Origin: a virus | Virus record (IMG/VR): IMGVR_UViG_3300012979_000010 | Coordinates: 1-40,685 of that record | Direction: 5' to 3' (one strand) | DNA length: 40,685 nucleotides | Part shown: piece after piece, positions 4,768-38,566 of the stretch | Layout of the letters: each line of letters starts with the position of its first letter | Numbering within the stretch: the first letter of the stretch is position 1 | Translations under genes and position numbers: made by a program | The notes under the pieces: model-generated | The model's database searches: none | Told to the model about the DNA's origin: nothing | Seen by the model: only the letters and a program-made list of their open reading frames with translations

Positions 4768-5949
4768 TCATCCATTCTTCAAGTTATCAAGTATCGCGCG
4801 GATAGTTTCATCCGCGTGTTTTTTGTTGATTTTCACATAGGAAAAAATAGGTCTGTTACCCTTCATAGATTGCCCGATACAATACTCTATACGTTCAAGC
4901 GAAATGCCAAGTTCAAATCCATGTTGGGCGAATGATTTACGCGCGGTGTAGTATATCACATGAGTTTCAATTCCCAACGATTGCGCCAGGATGCCGATGT
5001 ACTTCGTTATGTACTTGCGCAAATTCTCATACGATAGCTTATACCCGAAATCAATCTTCCCATTTCTGCCCATATACCTTTTAATAATAGGCTTCGCTTC
5101 TTCGGGGATAGTAAAGCACACCTTCTTATCGTTTTTCTTGGTGTTTTTCGACTTCTGCCGCTCATATTCCATCGTTGTTTTCCCCTTGAAATTGTACGAA
5201 AGCAAATCAACCATGTTAATGCCGCCAAGATAATATGATAGCATAAACGCATCACGCGCCACAACAAGAGCCTTTGCTTTTGGATCTGAATCGCGGATAA
5301 GCCTTACTTCCTCTACTGATATATCAAGTTCGCGCACTGGAATGGTCGGTTTTTCGTAGTATGCAAAAGGGTGTGTGTCATATTTAACCATGTTGTCGCG
5401 GATTGCCTGGTTTATGACCGCCTTAAGATGCGCCATGTGCGTTCCTCGCGTGGAAGGATTGAGCGAAAGCGCACGCATCATGTATATGTCGAAGTCTTTA
5501 ATTGTTCTTGGGGTAATGCCGTCAAGCATGATATCGTGCTTGCAGAATTCAATAAAATACTTCGATGTCCTGGCATATAGTTGTGCGGTAGATTTCCGAC
5601 CTTCACGGATAAGTGTATCTATGTAATCGTCCGAAGCAAGCGAGTAGGAGGTGGAACCGCTCTTAATGGTGTGCAGATATTCGATAAGCTGCTTGCATGA
5701 GTATGCATGGGTGTTAATCTTATCAAGTGCTTCCTGGTACGAATTAAGAATTGAGCGCAGTTTCATATTTATATAAGGTGCGTTAGGCACATTGACTATC
5801 TGCCCTTGTTGAAGGTCATCGGGGTTGTCAAGCTCAAAGCGAGTTACGATGTATCGCGTTTGTTGGCGATGTCCTACTGCAATTCTGATTTTGTGTTTCC
5901 CAGCCTTGTTGATTTTGGCTGGAACGATGGCAATTCTTAAAGTTGTCAT
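4768..5949 (-). CDS. int: Tyrosine recombinase / phage integrase (Bacteroidetes type with an N-terminal arm-binding domain)
   Basis: 393 aa. The N-terminus MTTLRIAIVPAKINKAGKHKIRIAVGHRQQTRYIVT is typical of Bacteroidetes integrases. It has a SAM-like core-binding region, and the C-terminal catalytic region contains ...ARKSFAQHGFELGISLERIEYCIGQSM.... It lies next to a tRNA-derived attP. Confidence 0.9.
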   Translation of the reverse strand: MTTLRIAIVPAKINKAGKHKIRIAVGHRQQTRYIVTRFELDNPDDLQQGQIVNVPNAPYINMKLRSILNSYQEALDKINTHAYSCKQLIEYLHTIKSGSTSYSLASDDYIDTLIREGRKSTAQLYARTSKYFIEFCKHDIMLDGITPRTIKDFDIYMMRALSLNPSTRGTHMAHLKAVINQAIRDNMVKYDTHPFAYYEKPTIPVRELDISVEEVRLIRDSDPKAKALVVARDAFMLSYYLGGINMVDLLSYNFKGKTTMEYERQKSKNTKKNDKKVCFTIPEEAKPIIKRYMGRNGKIDFGYKLSYENLRKYITKYIGILAQSLGIETHVIYYTARKSFAQHGFELGISLERIEYCIGQSMKGNRPIFSYVKINKKHADETIRAILDNLKNG

Positions 5950-7068: not shown

Positions 7069-7716
7069 TTACTTTGCAGATAGGCACATTAATACTTTAT
7101 ACATTGAATATATATCATCGTAGAATATGTCGAAATCGTCATAATCGGGGTTGATAGAGTGGCAAGTTATCCTATCATCGTGAATGCTCTTGCGCACGTT
7201 CTTAATTACTACACCATTGCAAGTGTCAAGAACGTATGTTTTCCCCCATTCAATAAATGAGTGGTGGTTTATCCTCTTTATTAGAATTCGGCTTCCATTA
7301 GGATATTCGGGTGTCATTGATTCGCCATATACGGTTATAGCGAAATCTACATTTTCTATTGGCGAAATAACTGCTTCACAATTTTGCAATGTTGTACCAT
7401 TTGCAGAAAATCCATCAAGGCTCCCACCTAAAGCTGATTGTGGTAGTAGATATGTAGTGTATATGCCAAGTTCCTTCAATTCCTCTTTGTTCCCTATATC
7501 TTCAAACATATCCCCTTCGCCAGTCATCAACCACGATGTTTTCACTTCGGGATATGCGTTCTTAATAATCTTGCAAAGGTCGGTACTGATGTTGTTTCTG
7601 CCGTTTAATACGTTCAGAATTCTTGTTTCTCTTTTAAGACCTATTGAACGTGCAAAGCTTGTTGGACTTTCAGCCAAATGCTCTAATAATTGCGATAGCC
7701 AGTGTACATATTTCAT
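7069..7716 (-). CDS. cI/LexA-like phage repressor with a C-terminal S24 autopeptidase domain
   Basis: The C-terminal half has VYGESMTPEYPNGSRILIKRIN...GKTYVLDTCNGVVIKNVRK, i.e. the S24 G(D/E)SM serine motif plus a downstream Lys. The N-terminal part is of HTH size. It is divergent from the early operon. Confidence 0.8.
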   Translation of the reverse strand: MKYVHWLSQLLEHLAESPTSFARSIGLKRETRILNVLNGRNNISTDLCKIIKNAYPEVKTSWLMTGEGDMFEDIGNKEELKELGIYTTYLLPQSALGGSLDGFSANGTTLQNCEAVISPIENVDFAITVYGESMTPEYPNGSRILIKRINHHSFIEWGKTYVLDTCNGVVIKNVRKSIHDDRITCHSINPDYDDFDIFYDDIYSMYKVLMCLSAK

Positions 7717-7777
7717 TGGAAAATGATGTAAATTGGTGGATAAAGTGTTAATAAATCATAATTCAGAGAATAAATCT

Positions 7778-7791
7778 CCAACATTTGTTGG
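7778..7791. promoter_or_regulatory. Perfect inverted repeat CCAACA-TT-TGTTGG (operator candidate) in the divergent switch region
   Basis: Read directly. The half-site-like TTGATGTTGG and TTATTGATG follow at 7792..7810. Confidence 0.45.
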
Positions 7792-7810
7792 TTGATGTTG
7801 GTTATTGATG

Positions 7811-7818
7811 TATATTTG
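7811..7818 (+). promoter_or_regulatory. Bacteroides-type -7 box (TATATTTG) for the rightward early operon
   Basis: Matches TAnnTTTG. It lies between the repressor gene and the first rightward ORF. Confidence 0.4.
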
Positions 7819-7901
7819 CAACAAACAAACAAATGATGCAACAAAGAAACAATAAATAACGAGAAAAAGCAAAAAAGCAAGCTAATAAAAAAATACTAAT
7901 T

Positions 7902-8087
7902 ATGGAAGCAACAATTAAAAAACACTCAAAGAACGAATTTTATGTGAAGAAAATAAGAGGCGGTTTTTTCTGTATTATTAATGGATATGACAATAGTATG
8001 GAATCAATCGAATCAATGGAAGAAGCTGCATATAACTTATGCAATAAGTTGAACGAAATGAGAAATAAGAGATTAGGATTGAATTAA
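7902..8087 (+). CDS. First early-operon ORF (61 aa), hypothetical
   Basis: ORF track. It occupies the cro position, but no HTH was recognised. Confidence 0.55.
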   Translation: MEATIKKHSKNEFYVKKIRGGFFCIINGYDNSMESIESMEEAAYNLCNKLNEMRNKRLGLN

Positions 8088-8094
8088 TAACCAA

Positions 8095-8112
8095 GCACCC
8101 CTTCGGGGGTGC
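8095..8112 (+). terminator. GC-rich hairpin GCACCCC-TTCG-GGGGTGC (no U tract)
   Basis: Perfect 7-bp stem with a TTCG loop, 8 nt after the stop of the 61-aa ORF. Confidence 0.45.
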
Positions 8113-8128
8113 ATAAAGAAACAACGAT

Positions 8129-8317
8129 ATGAAAACTTTTAAGGCAATATTATTAGGCATGGCGATAGTTCTTACCATTGGCATAGCTGGTAAGTACGAT
8201 TGGGCGAGTGAGGTGTGCTACACAATGGAACGTAAGACCTACAACGAAATCAGCAAGAAGCTGAACACCCACAACGAAATTAAGATTGCGGAATACTACG
8301 TTGAGCATTACAAGTGA
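8129..8317 (+). CDS. Small membrane protein (62 aa)
   Basis: N-terminal hydrophobic helix AILLGMAIVLTIGIAG. Confidence 0.55.
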   Translation: MKTFKAILLGMAIVLTIGIAGKYDWASEVCYTMERKTYNEISKKLNTHNEIKIAEYYVEHYK

Positions 8318-8320
8318 TTG

Positions 8321-8660
8321 CGCGGAGTGCGTTCGGTGGATGCACGGAACGTACTCGGTGGAACCACCGAACAGATACGGCTCTTTTGCGAGTGCTATAT
8401 AATAAGTGGTTTTAGTTTCAAAGCCTTGTGATTGCTAAAGACAAGCACCCGATAGCGAGAATCGGCAAGGCGCGACTTGATTAGTTTTTTGACATTTTGA
8501 ATCTCTCTCATAAGGCACGAAAGTATAATTGCCGACTGGAAGGCAAGCCTACTACGATATAGTCCCGACAGGTCACGATTCCTGCAAGTAACCGTAAAAG
8601 GTTGTCGGGACACGAACAGAGAACTCATACTATTCATTATTACAAATTAGAAAGGTTAAT
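8321..8660 (+). ncRNA. Structured non-coding segment 1 (unknown class)
   Basis: Helices read directly. A 10-bp helix pairs 8325..8334 with 8347..8356 and includes a G:U. It competes with a 9-bp helix pairing 8331..8339 with 8364..8372. Hairpins lie at 8449..8465 and 8529..8546. A perfect 9-bp helix pairs 8562..8570 with 8603..8611. The segment is closed by the terminator at 8666..8695. Confidence 0.4.
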
Positions 8661-8665
8661 ATTCG

Positions 8666-8695
8666 CCGCTTGGTTCGAGAGAATAGAGCGGTTTT
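8666..8695 (+). terminator. Sibling terminator hairpin 1 (most divergent copy)
   Basis: CCGCT...AGCGG followed by TTTT. Confidence 0.5.
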
Positions 8696-8745
8696 AATTA
8701 GTAAAAAACGATTTTCATCATAGTATTTGTTATTAGGTTTTGTTT

Positions 8746-8776
8746 CCGCCTTGTCTGTGAAGATAGGGCGGCTTTC
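8746..8776 (+). terminator. Sibling terminator hairpin 2
   Basis: TTTCCGCCTT-gtctgtgaagat-AGGGCGG-CTTTCAA. Confidence 0.6.
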
Positions 8777-8778
8777 AA

Positions 8779-8885
8779 GGGGTAAGAGGTCAGCACAGAT
8801 TTAATTTACTCTTTTCCATTCAAAGTTATTTCTGATTACACCTATTTGCTGATGGATCTTGGTGGTTCGATTCCACCTACCCCAC
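8779..8885 (+). ncRNA. tRNA minihelix / tmRNA-like mimic A (acceptor stem plus T arm, no D or anticodon arm)
   Basis: T arm GGTGG-TTCGATT-CCACC at 8861..8877. TACCCC (8878..8883) pairs with GGGGTA (8779..8784). An inner helix pairs 8785..8795 with 8847..8859 and encloses a 51-nt AT-rich loop. Confidence 0.5.
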
Positions 8886-8942
8886 AATCAGATGTAACGC
8901 GTCTGATATTTGTAATTTAATTTTCATAATTTGAATTTGTTT

Positions 8943-8973
8943 CCGCCTTGCTCGCGATGAGTAGGGCGGTTTT
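8943..8973 (+). terminator. Sibling terminator hairpin 3
   Basis: TTTCCGCCTT-gctcgcgatgagt-AGGGCGG-TTTTCAA. Confidence 0.6.
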
Positions 8974-9009
8974 CAACAGACATTTATTAATCATTAAAAT
9001 ATAAGCGAT

Positions 9010-9150
9010 ATGGAAGAAATGAAGATGTTTTTTGAGCAGATTCGCAAGGAAGAACAAAGGCGGTCTGTTATGCAAGAGATTGACGAGATTGTTGATGACT
9101 TCAATCATGCGATTGATGAGATTCTTGATAAGCTGAAAGAAAAGAAATAG
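9010..9150 (+). CDS. Small acidic coiled-coil-like ORF (46 aa)
   Basis: MEEMKMFFEQIRKEEQRRSVMQEIDEIVDDFNHAIDEILDKLKEKK. It is the only plausible +strand ORF inside the island and is below the ORF-track cut-off. Confidence 0.4.
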   Translation: MEEMKMFFEQIRKEEQRRSVMQEIDEIVDDFNHAIDEILDKLKEKK

Positions 9151-9238
9151 GCTCGTAGGAGTTGCCAACGCAACCCAAGTTCGGTGGGTGGCAATAGCCA
9201 ATATCCGAAATTAAATCTGGACTGAATTTGCGTGAACG

Positions 9239-9348
9239 AAGCTGATTCCCCTACTTGGCAAGGGGCAGTAATCTGATAAGTACCGAGAATAAAGTAAGTC
9301 AGTGCGAAAGCATACACGTTCGGAATATCGGGAGTGAATAATCAGCTT
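9239..9348 (+). ncRNA. Closed structured RNA domain upstream of tRNA mimic B
   Basis: A perfect 9-bp closing helix pairs AAGCTGATT (9239..9247) with AATCAGCTT (9340..9348). Inside are the hairpin CCCCT/AGGGG (9248..9265) and a GAAA-tetraloop hairpin (9302..9313). Confidence 0.45.
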
Positions 9349-9352
9349 CTTT

Positions 9353-9428
9353 TCCCCTGCTATACGCGAATGGTAGCGCGAAGTGTAATACCTGGGAAAC
9401 AACGGTGGTTCGATTCCACCACAGGGGA
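9353..9428 (+). ncRNA. tRNA mimic B (acceptor, D-like arm and T arm; no anticodon arm)
   Basis: TCCCCTG (9353..9359) pairs with CAGGGGA (9422..9428). The D-like arm is CGCG-AATGGTAG-CGCG (9365..9380). The T arm at 9404..9420 matches mimic A over 17 nt. The 23 nt between the D and T arms form no anticodon stem. Confidence 0.5.
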
Positions 9429-9503
9429 CAACCAATTAGCGAATTGGGGTGTAGAATTAATGTTAGATGTTTAAGAGCATTACATTTTGGATGTATTATT
9501 TTC

Positions 9504-9533
9504 CCACCTCGCTTGTGAAAGTAGGGTGGTTTT
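9504..9533 (+). terminator. Sibling terminator hairpin 4 (carries a compensatory change)
   Basis: TTTCCCACCT-cgcttgtgaaagta-GGGTGG-TTTTCAA. The G:C pair of copies 2 and 3 is replaced by A:T. Confidence 0.6.
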
Positions 9534-9557
9534 CAAGGAACTTAAAAACAACAAGAT

Positions 9558-9758
9558 ATGAACCCATTTAAGAAGAAACAACAACAAGAAAAGAAGTACT
9601 ACTTGATAATACAATTTCAAGTAATCTACAAGGATGGTTCGCGCGACATCGTGAAGCTGAATGCTCCGATAGAGGTGGACAACGTGAACGATTTCCGCAT
9701 GAAGAAGAAAGCGGAATATCAATGTGAAGGTGTAAACTTAACGTATTACGAAGTATGA
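9558..9758 (+). CDS. Hypothetical protein (66 aa) with a Lys-rich N-terminus
   Basis: ORF track. Its stop overlaps the next start. Confidence 0.6.
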   Translation: MNPFKKKQQQEKKYYLIIQFQVIYKDGSRDIVKLNAPIEVDNVNDFRMKKKAEYQCEGVNLTYYEV

Positions 9759-37558: not shown

Positions 37559-38566
37559 ATGAGGAAGAATATGCTTAATGTAGCCTATCTGAATGGCGCA
37601 GGCGGTATTGCCATTGGTGGTGGTTCTGCTGGTGGTGGCGGTGGTAGTAGTTCTAAGGGTTGGACTGGTCATGCTGATGTGCAAGGCTTGAAGGCTATTG
37701 GTTGGACTGACGAGGATATTGAATACTATCAAGCGCATGGTGTGAATTGGAACGAGGAGGATGATGCGTATCATAAAGTTCCCGAAGATAATATTGCGTT
37801 GTATGGGGTGCTGAATGTGAACAATATATCCACTTACAAGGATAGGATTGTGTATCTGCCGAAGATTGATACAAGTGGGGTGACGAGTATGAATTATAAG
37901 TTTAATGGTTGTCAAATTCTTGTTGCAATTCCGCAGTTAGATACAAGCAGTGTAACGAGTATGAGTGAAATGTTCAATAATTGCTATTCTCTTGTTTCCA
38001 TTCCGCAGTTGAATACAAGCAGTGTAACGAGTATGAGTAGTATATTCAAAAATTGCTATTCTCTTGTTTCCATTCCGCAGTTGAATACAAGCAGTGTAAC
38101 GAGTATGAGTAGTATGTTCAGTAATTGCTATTCTCTTGTTTCCATTCCGCAATTAGATACAAGTAAGGTTACTAATATGAGCAGTATGTTCAGTAATTGC
38201 TATTCTCTTGTTTCCATTCCGCAGTTAGATACAAGTAATACAGAGTATATGCTTAGTCTGTTCAGTAATTGTTATTCTCTTACTGCCATTCCGCAGTTGA
38301 ATACAAGTAGGGTTACGGATATGAATAGTATGTTAAATTATTGCTATTCTATACAAACCGCTAAAATTAAAAACGTAAAATTGGCATTGCAAGTGAAGAA
38401 TACATCATTATTAAACAAGGAAAGTTTGCTCTACATTATTAACAACGAGGCTGCTACGAGTGCAATTACGATAACATTGAGTAGTTACATCTACGATAAG
38501 TATGTGAACGATGCAGATGTAGTGGCGGCATTGGCTAATCATCCTAACATTTCAATAGCTAAATAG
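37559..38566 (+). CDS. BspA-type leucine-rich-repeat protein with a Gly-rich N-terminal linker
   Basis: Seven 23-aa units of the form SLVSIPQLNTSSVTSMSSMFSNCY, preceded by GGGSAGGGGGSSS. Confidence 0.75.
   Translation: MRKNMLNVAYLNGAGGIAIGGGSAGGGGGSSSKGWTGHADVQGLKAIGWTDEDIEYYQAHGVNWNEEDDAYHKVPEDNIALYGVLNVNNISTYKDRIVYLPKIDTSGVTSMNYKFNGCQILVAIPQLDTSSVTSMSEMFNNCYSLVSIPQLNTSSVTSMSSIFKNCYSLVSIPQLNTSSVTSMSSMFSNCYSLVSIPQLDTSKVTNMSSMFSNCYSLVSIPQLDTSNTEYMLSLFSNCYSLTAIPQLNTSRVTDMNSMLNYCYSIQTAKIKNVKLALQVKNTSLLNKESLLYIINNEAATSAITITLSSYIYDKYVNDADVVAALANHPNISIAK
37847..38329 (+). repeat. 69-bp in-frame tandem repeats (7 units; the central 4-5 are nearly identical at DNA level)
   Basis: ttccattccgcagttgaatacaagcagtgtaacgagtatgagtagtatgttcagtaattgctattctcttgtt recurs with few substitutions. 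Confidence 0.85.

Follow-up and report, generated by a model that had tools for sequence, protein, structure and literature searches.

What is an RNA element with the size and shape of a transfer RNA (tRNA), and without an anticodon arm, doing in the early operon of a phage? The question arises at element B (positions 9353-9431, plus strand) of the IMG/VR virus record IMGVR_UViG_3300012979_000010, whose whole stretch of 40,685 nucleotides (nt) is the window analyzed here and which represents a complete-looking, temperate Bacteroidales-type phage genome of about 40.7 kb. Comparison across lineages shows that B is a conserved, strand-specific and selected RNA module of tRNA origin, and B is a derived representative of the many tRNA-derived modules that Bacteroidales temperate phages carry in their early operons.

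Along the plus strand, the 5' strand of the acceptor (UCCCCUG, 9353-9359, paired with 9422-9428) is followed by a 5-nt spacer (CUAUA, 9360-9364) where a canonical tRNA has 2 nt, by the D arm CGCG-AAUGGUAG-CGCG (9365-9380), whose loop holds the equivalents of A14, G18, G19 and A21, by a hypervariable linker of 23 nt (9381-9403) where a tRNA has its anticodon arm and variable loop, and by the T arm GGUGG-UUCGAUU-CCACC (9404-9420) with its canonical T loop. The 3' side (9421-9428) comprises an extra A (A9421), the acceptor strand CAGGGG and A9428 as pair partner or discriminator, with the CAA trailer beyond it. A sequence-only reading had proposed these coordinates for B, for a second copy of its T arm and for an acceptor with A9421 left over, and every one of them was verified in the sequence, as was the D arm CGCG-AATGGTAG-CGCG (9365-9380). 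B measures 76 nt, and the distance from the D stem to the T stem is exactly the canonical 23 nt. The 17-nt T arm occurs twice in the window (9404-9420 and 8861-8877) against 0.04 copies expected by chance; the combination of T arm, 7-bp acceptor and D arm in tRNA geometry gave one match in the window and none in 200 dinucleotide shuffles, and T arm plus acceptor without the D arm gave a mean of 0.045 per shuffle. The folding energy is not significant (z = -1.1 for 9230-9440, other z-scores about -1 and 0), and support for the structure of B therefore comes from comparative data. Position 9428 is A, G or C across three lineages, so that U9353:N9428 reads as UA, as UG or as a mismatch (UC), and the first pair could be placed in either of two registers. 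In the alternative one, the acceptor would have 6 bp with C9360 and A9421 mismatched (7:66), 9428 would serve as discriminator and U9353 would be position -1; this register yields the 'A-CAA' 3' end typical of the wider module family.

B shares with tRNAs an acceptor closing onto a T arm with a UUCRANN loop (with one extra nt, A9421) and a D arm with G18 and G19. ARAGORN at default settings returned no tRNA or transfer-messenger RNA (tmRNA) gene, and the best score over B from the Rfam tRNA clan (CL00001) was 9.7 bits against a gathering score of 29, the homologues of B likewise scoring below the Rfam tRNA threshold. That B might be a real if unusual decoding tRNA is suggested by its tRNA size, the canonical D-to-T distance and a weak ARAGORN call, a tRNA-Leu(UAA) model forced onto 9354-9429 at 90% thresholds. 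However, the forced anticodon stem (CGAAG/CCUGG) pairs at three of its five positions and leaves G at position 33 and U at position 37, and a natural variant, G9395A in the 95% identical contigs L187 and L191, disrupts its closing pair. In these relatives relaxed ARAGORN shifts the register to an 8-nt loop, more distant homologues give other models again, with other 'anticodons' in linkers of 19 and 15 nt, and at 70% thresholds a spurious permuted tmRNA call was all that appeared. A 5-bp anticodon stem with a 7-nt loop carrying U33 and a purine at 37 is thus not conserved among the B homologues, and we regard a decoding function as barely credible. An ordinary tRNA is ruled out by the default ARAGORN result, the Rfam scores and the inconsistent forced anticodon stems. 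The sequence-only reading, which saw no stem in the 23 nt at 9381-9403 and called B tRNA-shaped and unable to decode, holds on both counts, as the acceptor, D and T stems are kept, the anticodon stem is not, and the relaxed search that it had proposed yielded only weak, mutually inconsistent anticodon stems.

The same reading considered a possible new class of RNA and named the Rfam models for YrlA, tmRNA, tRNA, ROOL and GOLLD as a check; no family matches B. In Rfam 15, at gathering thresholds and at E <= 10 over 8300-9700, B was unmatched, and so were the YrlA, tmRNA, ROOL and GOLLD models. GenBank phage DNA showed no similarity to 8300-9600, and full-text literature searches brought up no account of tRNA-like RNAs in Bacteroides phages, of DUF2693 motifs or of decoys for tRNA. 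The module set to which B belongs, absent from Rfam 15 and from the papers found, is apparently undescribed.

Homologues of B were reached by several routes. With the neighboring 66-aa open reading frame (ORF) as a lead, eight related contigs were obtained (95-99% identical), in which B carries three substitutions (9381, 9395 and 9428), none of them in stems, and the linker takes two of the three in L187/L191. A covariance model of B identified a homologue in a prophage of Hallella (Prevotella) bergensis DSM 17361 (4347-4422 of L123, identical to L006; 33.8 bits, E about 1e-6), and a pattern scan added a second distant homologue on the metagenome contig L193. The resulting B-type alignment holds four lineages (window, L187/L191, L193 and L123); 98.4% of its cells are paired, compared with 40-60% in slid controls, and 7 of the 16 pairs show compensatory changes. 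Five of the six inner acceptor pairs are changed on both sides in L123 (GGGCAU/AUGCCC versus CCCCUG), and the D stem changes from G-C to A-U in L193 and from C-G to G-U in L123. The D loop AAUGGUAG and the T loop UUCGAUU are invariant in all B-type lineages, and the T arm is kept apart from its first pair, which is lost in L123. By comparison, the linker is unalignable, with a length of 23 nt in the window, 19 nt of unrelated sequence in L193 and 15 nt in L123. The alignment that the earlier reading had called for therefore shows conserved paired regions with covariation. The 5-nt spacer (CUAUG in L193, CUAAU in L123) and the extra A after the T stem, both of which that reading had pointed out, recur in L193 and L123/L006, the latter also in a module of contig L117; seen in independent homologues, they are family traits and not decay. 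Selection thus retains the acceptor, the D arm with G18/G19 and the T arm with its canonical loop, i.e., the tRNA 'elbow' and a 12-layer acceptor/T stack, and the anticodon arm has given way to a freely evolving linker of 15-23 nt, so that B is unable to decode.

These data also bear on the idea that B is a decaying phage tRNA pseudogene without function. Such an origin is consistent with the tRNA-Leu(UAA) call that ARAGORN still gives at the 90% threshold, with the D loop that B shares with its nearest relatives in sequence, phage genes resembling tRNA-Gln(UUG), and with a substitution rate in the 95% relatives (3 in 76 nt) that is near that of the flanks. Nevertheless, all 16 stem pairs are intact despite the loss of the anticodon stem, compensatory changes preserve the acceptor and D stems where the linker has become unalignable, and the odd spacer and extra A are conserved, which renders decay improbable. 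In further, non-exhaustive searches, an exact 25-mer of B had no match in IMG/VR, a D-loop/T-arm pattern matched the Hallella prophage alone in IMG/VR plus one metagenome contig, and two covariance models (R1 and R2) run over about 2.4 Mb of related loci gave no B-type or domain copies past L006/L123, L193 and L117. Among the loci collected through the ERF and repressor genes, no close relative of the window was present (ERF identity <=71%), and its non-coding RNA (ncRNA) region had no blastn homologue.

Immediately upstream of B lies a structured RNA domain of about 110 nt (9238-9349, plus strand) with four helices (P1 9238-9247/9340-9349, P2 9248-9252/9261-9265, P3 9302-9313 and P4 9315-9336). 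The 9-bp helix and the two hairpins that had been read from the letters were verified: AAGCTGATT (9239-9247) is perfectly complementary to AATCAGCTT (9340-9348), the pair G9238-C9349 extends P1 to 10 bp, and the minimum free energy fold contains P2 (CCCCU/AGGGG) and P3 (GUGC-GAAA-GCAU), with CGGAAUA as the loop of P4. A search with nhmmer found a homologue of the domain at 390-509 of L117, an uncultured Phocaeicola phage contig (E = 2.9e-4), in the same position as in the window, namely upstream of homologues of the 66-aa ORF and of ERF. RNAalifold on the two sequences gave 27 consensus pairs in four helices, eight of them compensatory, with 96% of cells paired versus about 40% when slid, a covariation signal drawn from two independent lineages and from the same sequences as the structure itself. 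The domain is a conserved folded RNA; it has no Rfam match, and a non-exhaustive search for its pattern in IMG/VR gave none.

In L117 the domain is followed, 3-4 nt on, by an acceptor/T-arm module (GCAUCG ... GAAG-UUCAAAU-CUUC-A-CGAUGC-A-C), and the gap between the domain and B in the window is likewise 3-4 nt. Since this order is repeated, the adjacency is probably meaningful, and it is one of the grounds for a composite ncRNA in which domain and B stay joined and the tRNA-like end serves as a stabilizing or protein-recruiting 3' module in the manner of tmRNA or YrlA. Covariation in both parts, and the variable structured inserts of 20-150 nt that other members hold within the tRNA frame, point in the same direction. 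However, in L187, L188 and L191 a coding cassette of about 400 nt with an 84-aa ORF separates the domain from B precisely in the U-run at 9349-9353, with both parts retained. Moreover, L193 and Hallella have B-type elements but no domain next to them: in L193 the B homologue follows a module of the element A type described below and the 46-aa ORF is also missing, and in Hallella it follows a GC hairpin located after a 76-aa ORF. The domain covariance model found no further copies in the roughly 2.4 Mb of related loci. Domain and B are thus separable by these comparisons and no obligatory fusion; the earlier description of B as fused to the domain was too strong, its recognition of the adjacency was sound, and we consider the composite ncRNA unlikely.

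The cassette is mobile. It is found at L187 1824-2220, at about L188 359-756 and at L191 1-92, and elsewhere in L193 (1372-1710); its 84-aa protein has no Pfam or PHROG match, and it ends in the hairpin CUCUUC-ACGAGUU-GGAGAG. In L117, the region 3' of the tRNA-like module (600-830) contains the conserved-looking CCGCUUGGAAAGGCAAGCG and GGGGUGAAAGUCCCC and a GUGA hairpin, and it is nearly invariant in L194-L200. Ten independent L117-type contigs (L194-L203, Logan assemblies, SRR143076xx) end within about 100 nt (<=~100 nt) of the domain/tRNA-like region, breaks that may reflect micro-diversity or repeats.

A cassette junction exactly at the 5' edge of B, together with the duplicated 17-nt T arm, would also suit a DNA-level element, either an attP core or a boundary of recombination that stems from the 3' end of a tRNA, and Bacteroides integrative elements often target tRNA 3' ends. 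This explanation is very improbable, given that B lies 3.4 kb from the integrase and within the early operon, that its 5' acceptor strand and D arm are complete, that an intact B-type homologue sits midway in the integrated Hallella bergensis prophage, and that covariation with G-U pairs is an RNA-level, strand-specific signal. An attP core is ruled out by where B lies and by the homologue that is intact inside the Hallella prophage. Covariation, position and the intact prophage homologue together disfavor the pseudogene, attP and odd-tRNA explanations alike.

B has a companion in the same operon. Element A (8779-8887, plus strand) reads GGGGUA ... T arm (8861-8877) ... UACCCC, A, CAA and thus combines a 6-bp acceptor with the same 17-nt T arm as B; its insert of 76 nt is AU-rich, a D arm is lacking, the element begins 7 nt past the hairpin at 8746-8771, and a further hairpin (8887-8907) follows directly 3'. 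In L187 the substitutions in element A are confined to the insert, and in L193 an A-like module (UGGUGUU ... GGAAG-UUCGAUU-CUUCC-AACACCA) stands directly 5' of the B homologue. The earlier reading had noted the second copy of the T arm; this copy marks a companion element, and B turns out to be one derived member among many modules and no isolated oddity.

This wider population was surveyed in a comparison set of 183 loci around ERF or repressor homologues, mostly from human-gut Bacteroidales phages and prophages. They contain 279 T-arm motifs, 222 of which close a 7-bp acceptor right past the T stem, compared with 81 of 279 in a displaced control, and 196 are on the ERF strand. Altogether 112 distinct elements of 53-207 nt were obtained. 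When ARAGORN was applied to 221 module occurrences, 136 (62%) were not called, 37 (17%) had 6- or 8-nt loops and 48 looked standard, 29 of these 48 being Gln-UUG; apparently genuine tRNA-Gln(UUG) genes are present in the same region of related phages. Many modules combine tRNA-Leu-like D and T arms with 20-150-nt inserts that take up the position of an anticodon arm, some of these inserts with a nested second T arm and D arm, and several are still matched by the Rfam tRNA model. The modules are intergenic (ORF overlap 5% versus 60% locus-wide) and have the same orientation as the flanking genes. In 106 distinct modules, U occupies position -1 in 48% (background T 26%) and G position +1 in 67%, the discriminator is A in 63%, and about 90% have the trailer C[A/U/G]A, CCA being very rare there. 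A stable hairpin was found within 45 nt 5' of the module in 51% of cases versus 10% at random positions (p = 4e-15), ending 0-13 nt from the module and often with the apical motif GUYY-GUGA-RRAU-AG, and the 45 nt on the 3' side were no more structured than random. A stringent pattern of hairpin plus D arm matched 83 IMG/VR contigs. These counts point to hundreds of B-like modules in related Bacteroidales temperate phages.

Individual members of the population show how far the frame can be stretched. A nested 'double' tRNA-like element at L048 3130-3262 (also in L054, L115, L121 and L050) has outer acceptor, D and T arms around an extended anticodon stem with a second T arm and a D-like arm, and scores 39-43 bits with the Rfam tRNA model, which treats the insert as an insertion. 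A conserved tRNA-like gene of 70 nt occurs at L048 4022-4092 and in 23 other loci; its 'anticodon' loop has 6 nt (UUCUAC), ARAGORN assigns it the anticodon 'tc', and its variable loop has 3 nt. Other modules have 8-nt loops (ggtt, tgcg), and the modules with loops of either size might be non-decoding tRNAs or tRNAs of the frameshift type. At L048 4185-4282 and in relatives, an insert replaces the anticodon and variable arms of a tRNA-Leu-like frame and can, judged by eye, form an H-type pseudoknot (GUAUG ... GAUAGAUU ... CAUAC ... AAUCUAUC). The L048 array had only trivial tRNA-like matches in GenBank phage DNA.

What, then, might such a module do? B is located on the sense strand of the early operon, between genes and right past a folded RNA, which is the domain here and a stable hairpin elsewhere. 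We tentatively favor, at a little short of even confidence, a role in RNA processing, in which the tRNA-maturation enzymes of the host would recognize the module as a generic handle of tRNA shape and the early transcript would be punctuated by it. RNase P would make its cut in the U-run (9349-9353), where B has its 5' edge, and RNase Z would cut past the discriminator, ahead of the CAA trailer, possibly followed by CCA addition. Cuts at the module edges would resolve a single long early transcript, so that the upstream 110-nt RNA or mRNA would gain a defined, helix-protected 3' end, the downstream RNA would begin with a 5' hairpin or a short AU-rich leader, and a stable tRNA-like by-product of about 75 nt would be set free. 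As the acceptor and discriminator are free to vary and the elbow nucleotides are fixed, recognition is probably generic and not isoacceptor-specific, which makes enzymes that read tRNA shape, i.e., RNase P, RNase Z, the CCA-adding enzyme, TruB and TrmA, the likeliest partners. The module edges act as discrete units, with the cassette inserted exactly at the 5' edge of B, and both pre-tRNA-like flanks (U-1, G+1 and a non-CCA trailer) and protecting upstream hairpins are enriched, as this reading would predict. An acceptor/T-arm minihelix is a sufficient substrate for bacterial RNase P, the 3' end of MALAT1 is set by a tRNA-like module (mascRNA), and such modules also direct the processing of the tRNA-miRNA-encoded RNAs (TMERs) of murine gammaherpesvirus 68 (MHV68).

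Several points weigh against the processing handle. Cleavage of B is a prediction at every step, and the 5-nt spacer and extra A depart from ideal substrates of RNase P and RNase Z. Although processing alone needs no D arm, the sequence of the D loop is strictly kept, which hints that the released RNA might itself have a function and would allow for a role in trans or for a joint RNA of domain and B. Furthermore, the hairpins in front of the modules resemble intrinsic terminators, and if these were efficient, the modules would be poorly transcribed without antitermination. Finally, the covariation derives from few independent sequences, namely four B-type and two domain lineages.

The conservation of D-loop and T-loop nucleotides beyond the needs of a cleavage signal is also what a decoy or sponge acting in trans would display, a released tRNA-shaped RNA that titrates or redirects a host factor binding the tRNA body early in infection; candidates are a tRNA-targeting defense nuclease, whose cleavage an RNA without an anticodon loop would escape, a modification enzyme, the CCA-adding enzyme or EF-Tu. 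The presence of several different modules per early region, in the earliest operon, would suit this role, and phage tRNAs are a known counter to tRNA-cleaving defenses, some of which cut outside the anticodon. Septu is reported to cleave the variable loop of tRNA-Tyr, outside the anticodon (PMC13096335). Nevertheless, isoacceptor identity is not kept, as acceptor and discriminator vary, a decoy for an anticodon nuclease should retain the anticodon loop, the neighboring ORFs carry no anti-defense annotation and no binding partner was found in the phage genome, and we hold a decoy to be rather unlikely. A broader proposal, which we see as a minor though genuine possibility, is that the modules form a large undescribed class of trans-acting, non-decoding RNAs in which the tRNA frame is a scaffold providing processing, stability and access to host proteins for a variable cargo. 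This cargo would be the linker, the 20-150-nt inserts or an adjoining domain such as that at 9238-9349; possible functions are the blocking of tRNA-directed immunity or the reprogramming of host RNA metabolism, and some tRNA-Leu-like members, with A73 and an intact D arm, might be aminoacylated. A search of the phage genome for antisense targets of the B linker, the single strands of the domain and the element A insert gave matches at chance level only.

Comparison with known systems places B between several of them. With canonical and phage tRNAs (RF00005) it shares an acceptor of the 7-bp class, the GG D arm, the T arm with a UUCRA loop, the length of 76 nt and pre-tRNA-like flanks, and it differs from them in having no conserved anticodon arm, a 5-nt spacer, an extra A, a variable discriminator and sub-threshold ARAGORN and Rfam scores. 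tmRNA likewise joins an acceptor and T-arm module without an anticodon arm to a structured part that is not tRNA; unlike tmRNA, B has no G3:U70 (C3-G70 in the window, G-C in L123), no tag ORF and no pseudoknot ring, and the Rfam tmRNA models score 9.7-12.7 bits against thresholds of 47-84. mascRNA (MALAT1/MEN-beta) and the MHV68 TMERs are cases in which a tRNA-like element beside a functional RNA acts as an RNase P/RNase Z signal and leaves a non-decoding product. B resembles them in that its tRNA-like fold adjoins another functional RNA (the domain at 3-4 nt, the hairpins of the family at 0-13 nt), whereas those systems are eukaryotic or herpesviral and nuclear and the cleavage of B is predicted only. 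Moreover, tRNAs punctuate mitochondrial polycistronic transcripts, and RNase P processes the precursor of the P1/P7 C4 RNA and the stable RNAs of the T4 tRNA cluster; the modules are similarly intergenic tRNA-like structures with a predicted cut-site role, yet most of those found here are non-decoding and paired with the conserved upstream hairpin (GUYY-GUGA-RRAU-AG).

YrlA and Y RNAs are also non-decoding RNAs with a tRNA-like module, and a version of Mycobacterium smegmatis YrlA with a 7-bp acceptor was cut by RNase P and received CCA (Chen et al. 2014, PMC4201824). YrlA is encoded beside rsr (Ro60) and has a Ro-binding stem with a GNCGAAN0-1G motif (PMC4201824). The window differs in having no Ro gene among its approximately 50 ORFs, no GNCGAAN0-1G motif by inspection and no Rfam match, and the RNA of B ends at the acceptor, as in a tRNA, whereas the ends of YrlA form a long stem. 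In the P3 hairpins UGCGAAAG (window) and AUCGAAAG (L117), inspection found the leading G of the YrlA motif absent. The earlier statement that no Ro/Rsr or SmpB gene is present agrees with a Pfam scan of the window's approximately 50 ORFs, in which no TROVE/Ro, SmpB, RtcB or tRNA-enzyme domain was found. Overall, tRNA-like non-decoding modules are already known as a kind, and the Bacteroidales-phage family is the part that is absent from Rfam 15 and was not found in the literature searched.

The genomic surroundings are those of a temperate phage, and a 40,469-nt contig in ENA holds a region identical to that of the window. The integrase (4768-5949) and the S24 repressor (7069-7716) are on the minus strand, and the rightward early operon encodes small ORFs, a GerE/LuxR-type regulator, ERF, a 298-aa ORF without a family match that was read as exonuclease-like, DUF3127, NinB and NinG; the remaining genes include methylases, terminase, a Clp-type prohead protease, tail genes and a holin. 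The small ORFs near B showed no RNA-related or anti-defense function in PHROGs or Pfam; a 46-aa ORF lies between element A and the domain. The sole plus-strand copy of the consensus Bacteroides -7 box (TAnnTTTG) within 7700-9700 is at 7811-7818 and precedes the first early ORF, which suggests that the early region is transcribed as one long RNA. The sequence TGAATTTG occurs twice on the plus strand, at 8932-8939 (3-4 nt 5' of the hairpin at 8943) and at 9223-9230 (7 nt 5' of the domain start at 9238), each copy one mismatch from TAnnTTTG, and both may be weak internal promoters. Far from this region, equally spaced short matches drew attention to a 72-nt periodic repeat at about 37990-38220 (plus strand) within a DUF285 gene (37559-38566).

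The stretch 8380-9560 is rich in structured RNA, comprising, besides element A, the domain and B, a DUF2693-FD RNA, a Y-shaped RNA and four related hairpins. The DUF2693-FD RNA (RF02926, 8422-8472, plus strand; 49.4 bits versus a gathering score of 44.5) is the sole gathering-level Rfam match of the window, and the motif is also present in the early regions of related phages (L187 967-1017, L081 3306-3354). In the Y-shaped small RNA (8563-8611, plus strand), the helix GUCCCGAC ... GUCGGGAC encloses two hairpins, and the loop UCACGAUU of one of them is conserved; the RNA has no Rfam match and is kept in L187 and L193 (nhmmer E = 1.5e-6), with 4 of 16 pairs compensatory. The four related hairpins (8666-8691, 8746-8771, 8943-8969 and 9503-9528) have the GNRA-type loops GAGA, GUGA, GCGA and GUGA and UUUUCAA-like tracts on their 3' sides, the last one forming with its U tract a terminator-like element (9503-9532, plus strand). 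Its pair 9509:9522 is C:A, U-A, C-G or U-G in close relatives, and a compensatory change seen among the four hairpins in L187 converts UCU/AGA to CUU/AAG. Their apical motif, GUYY-GUGA-RRAU-AG, also stands ahead of tRNA-like modules in many related phages. These hairpins could be terminators, 3'-end protectors or protein-binding (nut-like) sites. A further hairpin (CCAAUU-AGCG-AAUUGG, 9432-9447, plus strand) abuts the CAA trailer of B and is invariant in close relatives; the hairpin at 8887-8907 occupies the corresponding place in element A.

Non-decoding tRNA mimicry is known in few cases, i.e., tmRNA, YrlA, viral tRNA-like structures, mascRNA and the herpesvirus TMERs, and we know of no report of it as a routine part of bacteriophage early operons. 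The modules appear to be abundant in human-gut Bacteroidales phages, diverse and mostly missed by tRNA finders, and annotators may mislabel them as odd or pseudo tRNAs. A B-type homologue is available in a cultured lysogen, Hallella bergensis DSM 17361, and the tRNA frame could serve as a native scaffold for RNA expression in Bacteroides. To our knowledge, the host phylum of Bacteroides lacks Hfq and has unusual gene-expression signals. If the modules are processing signals, they would reveal how phages resolve and stabilize their early transcripts in such an Hfq-less phylum, and if they act in trans, they would constitute a new class of phage RNA effectors.

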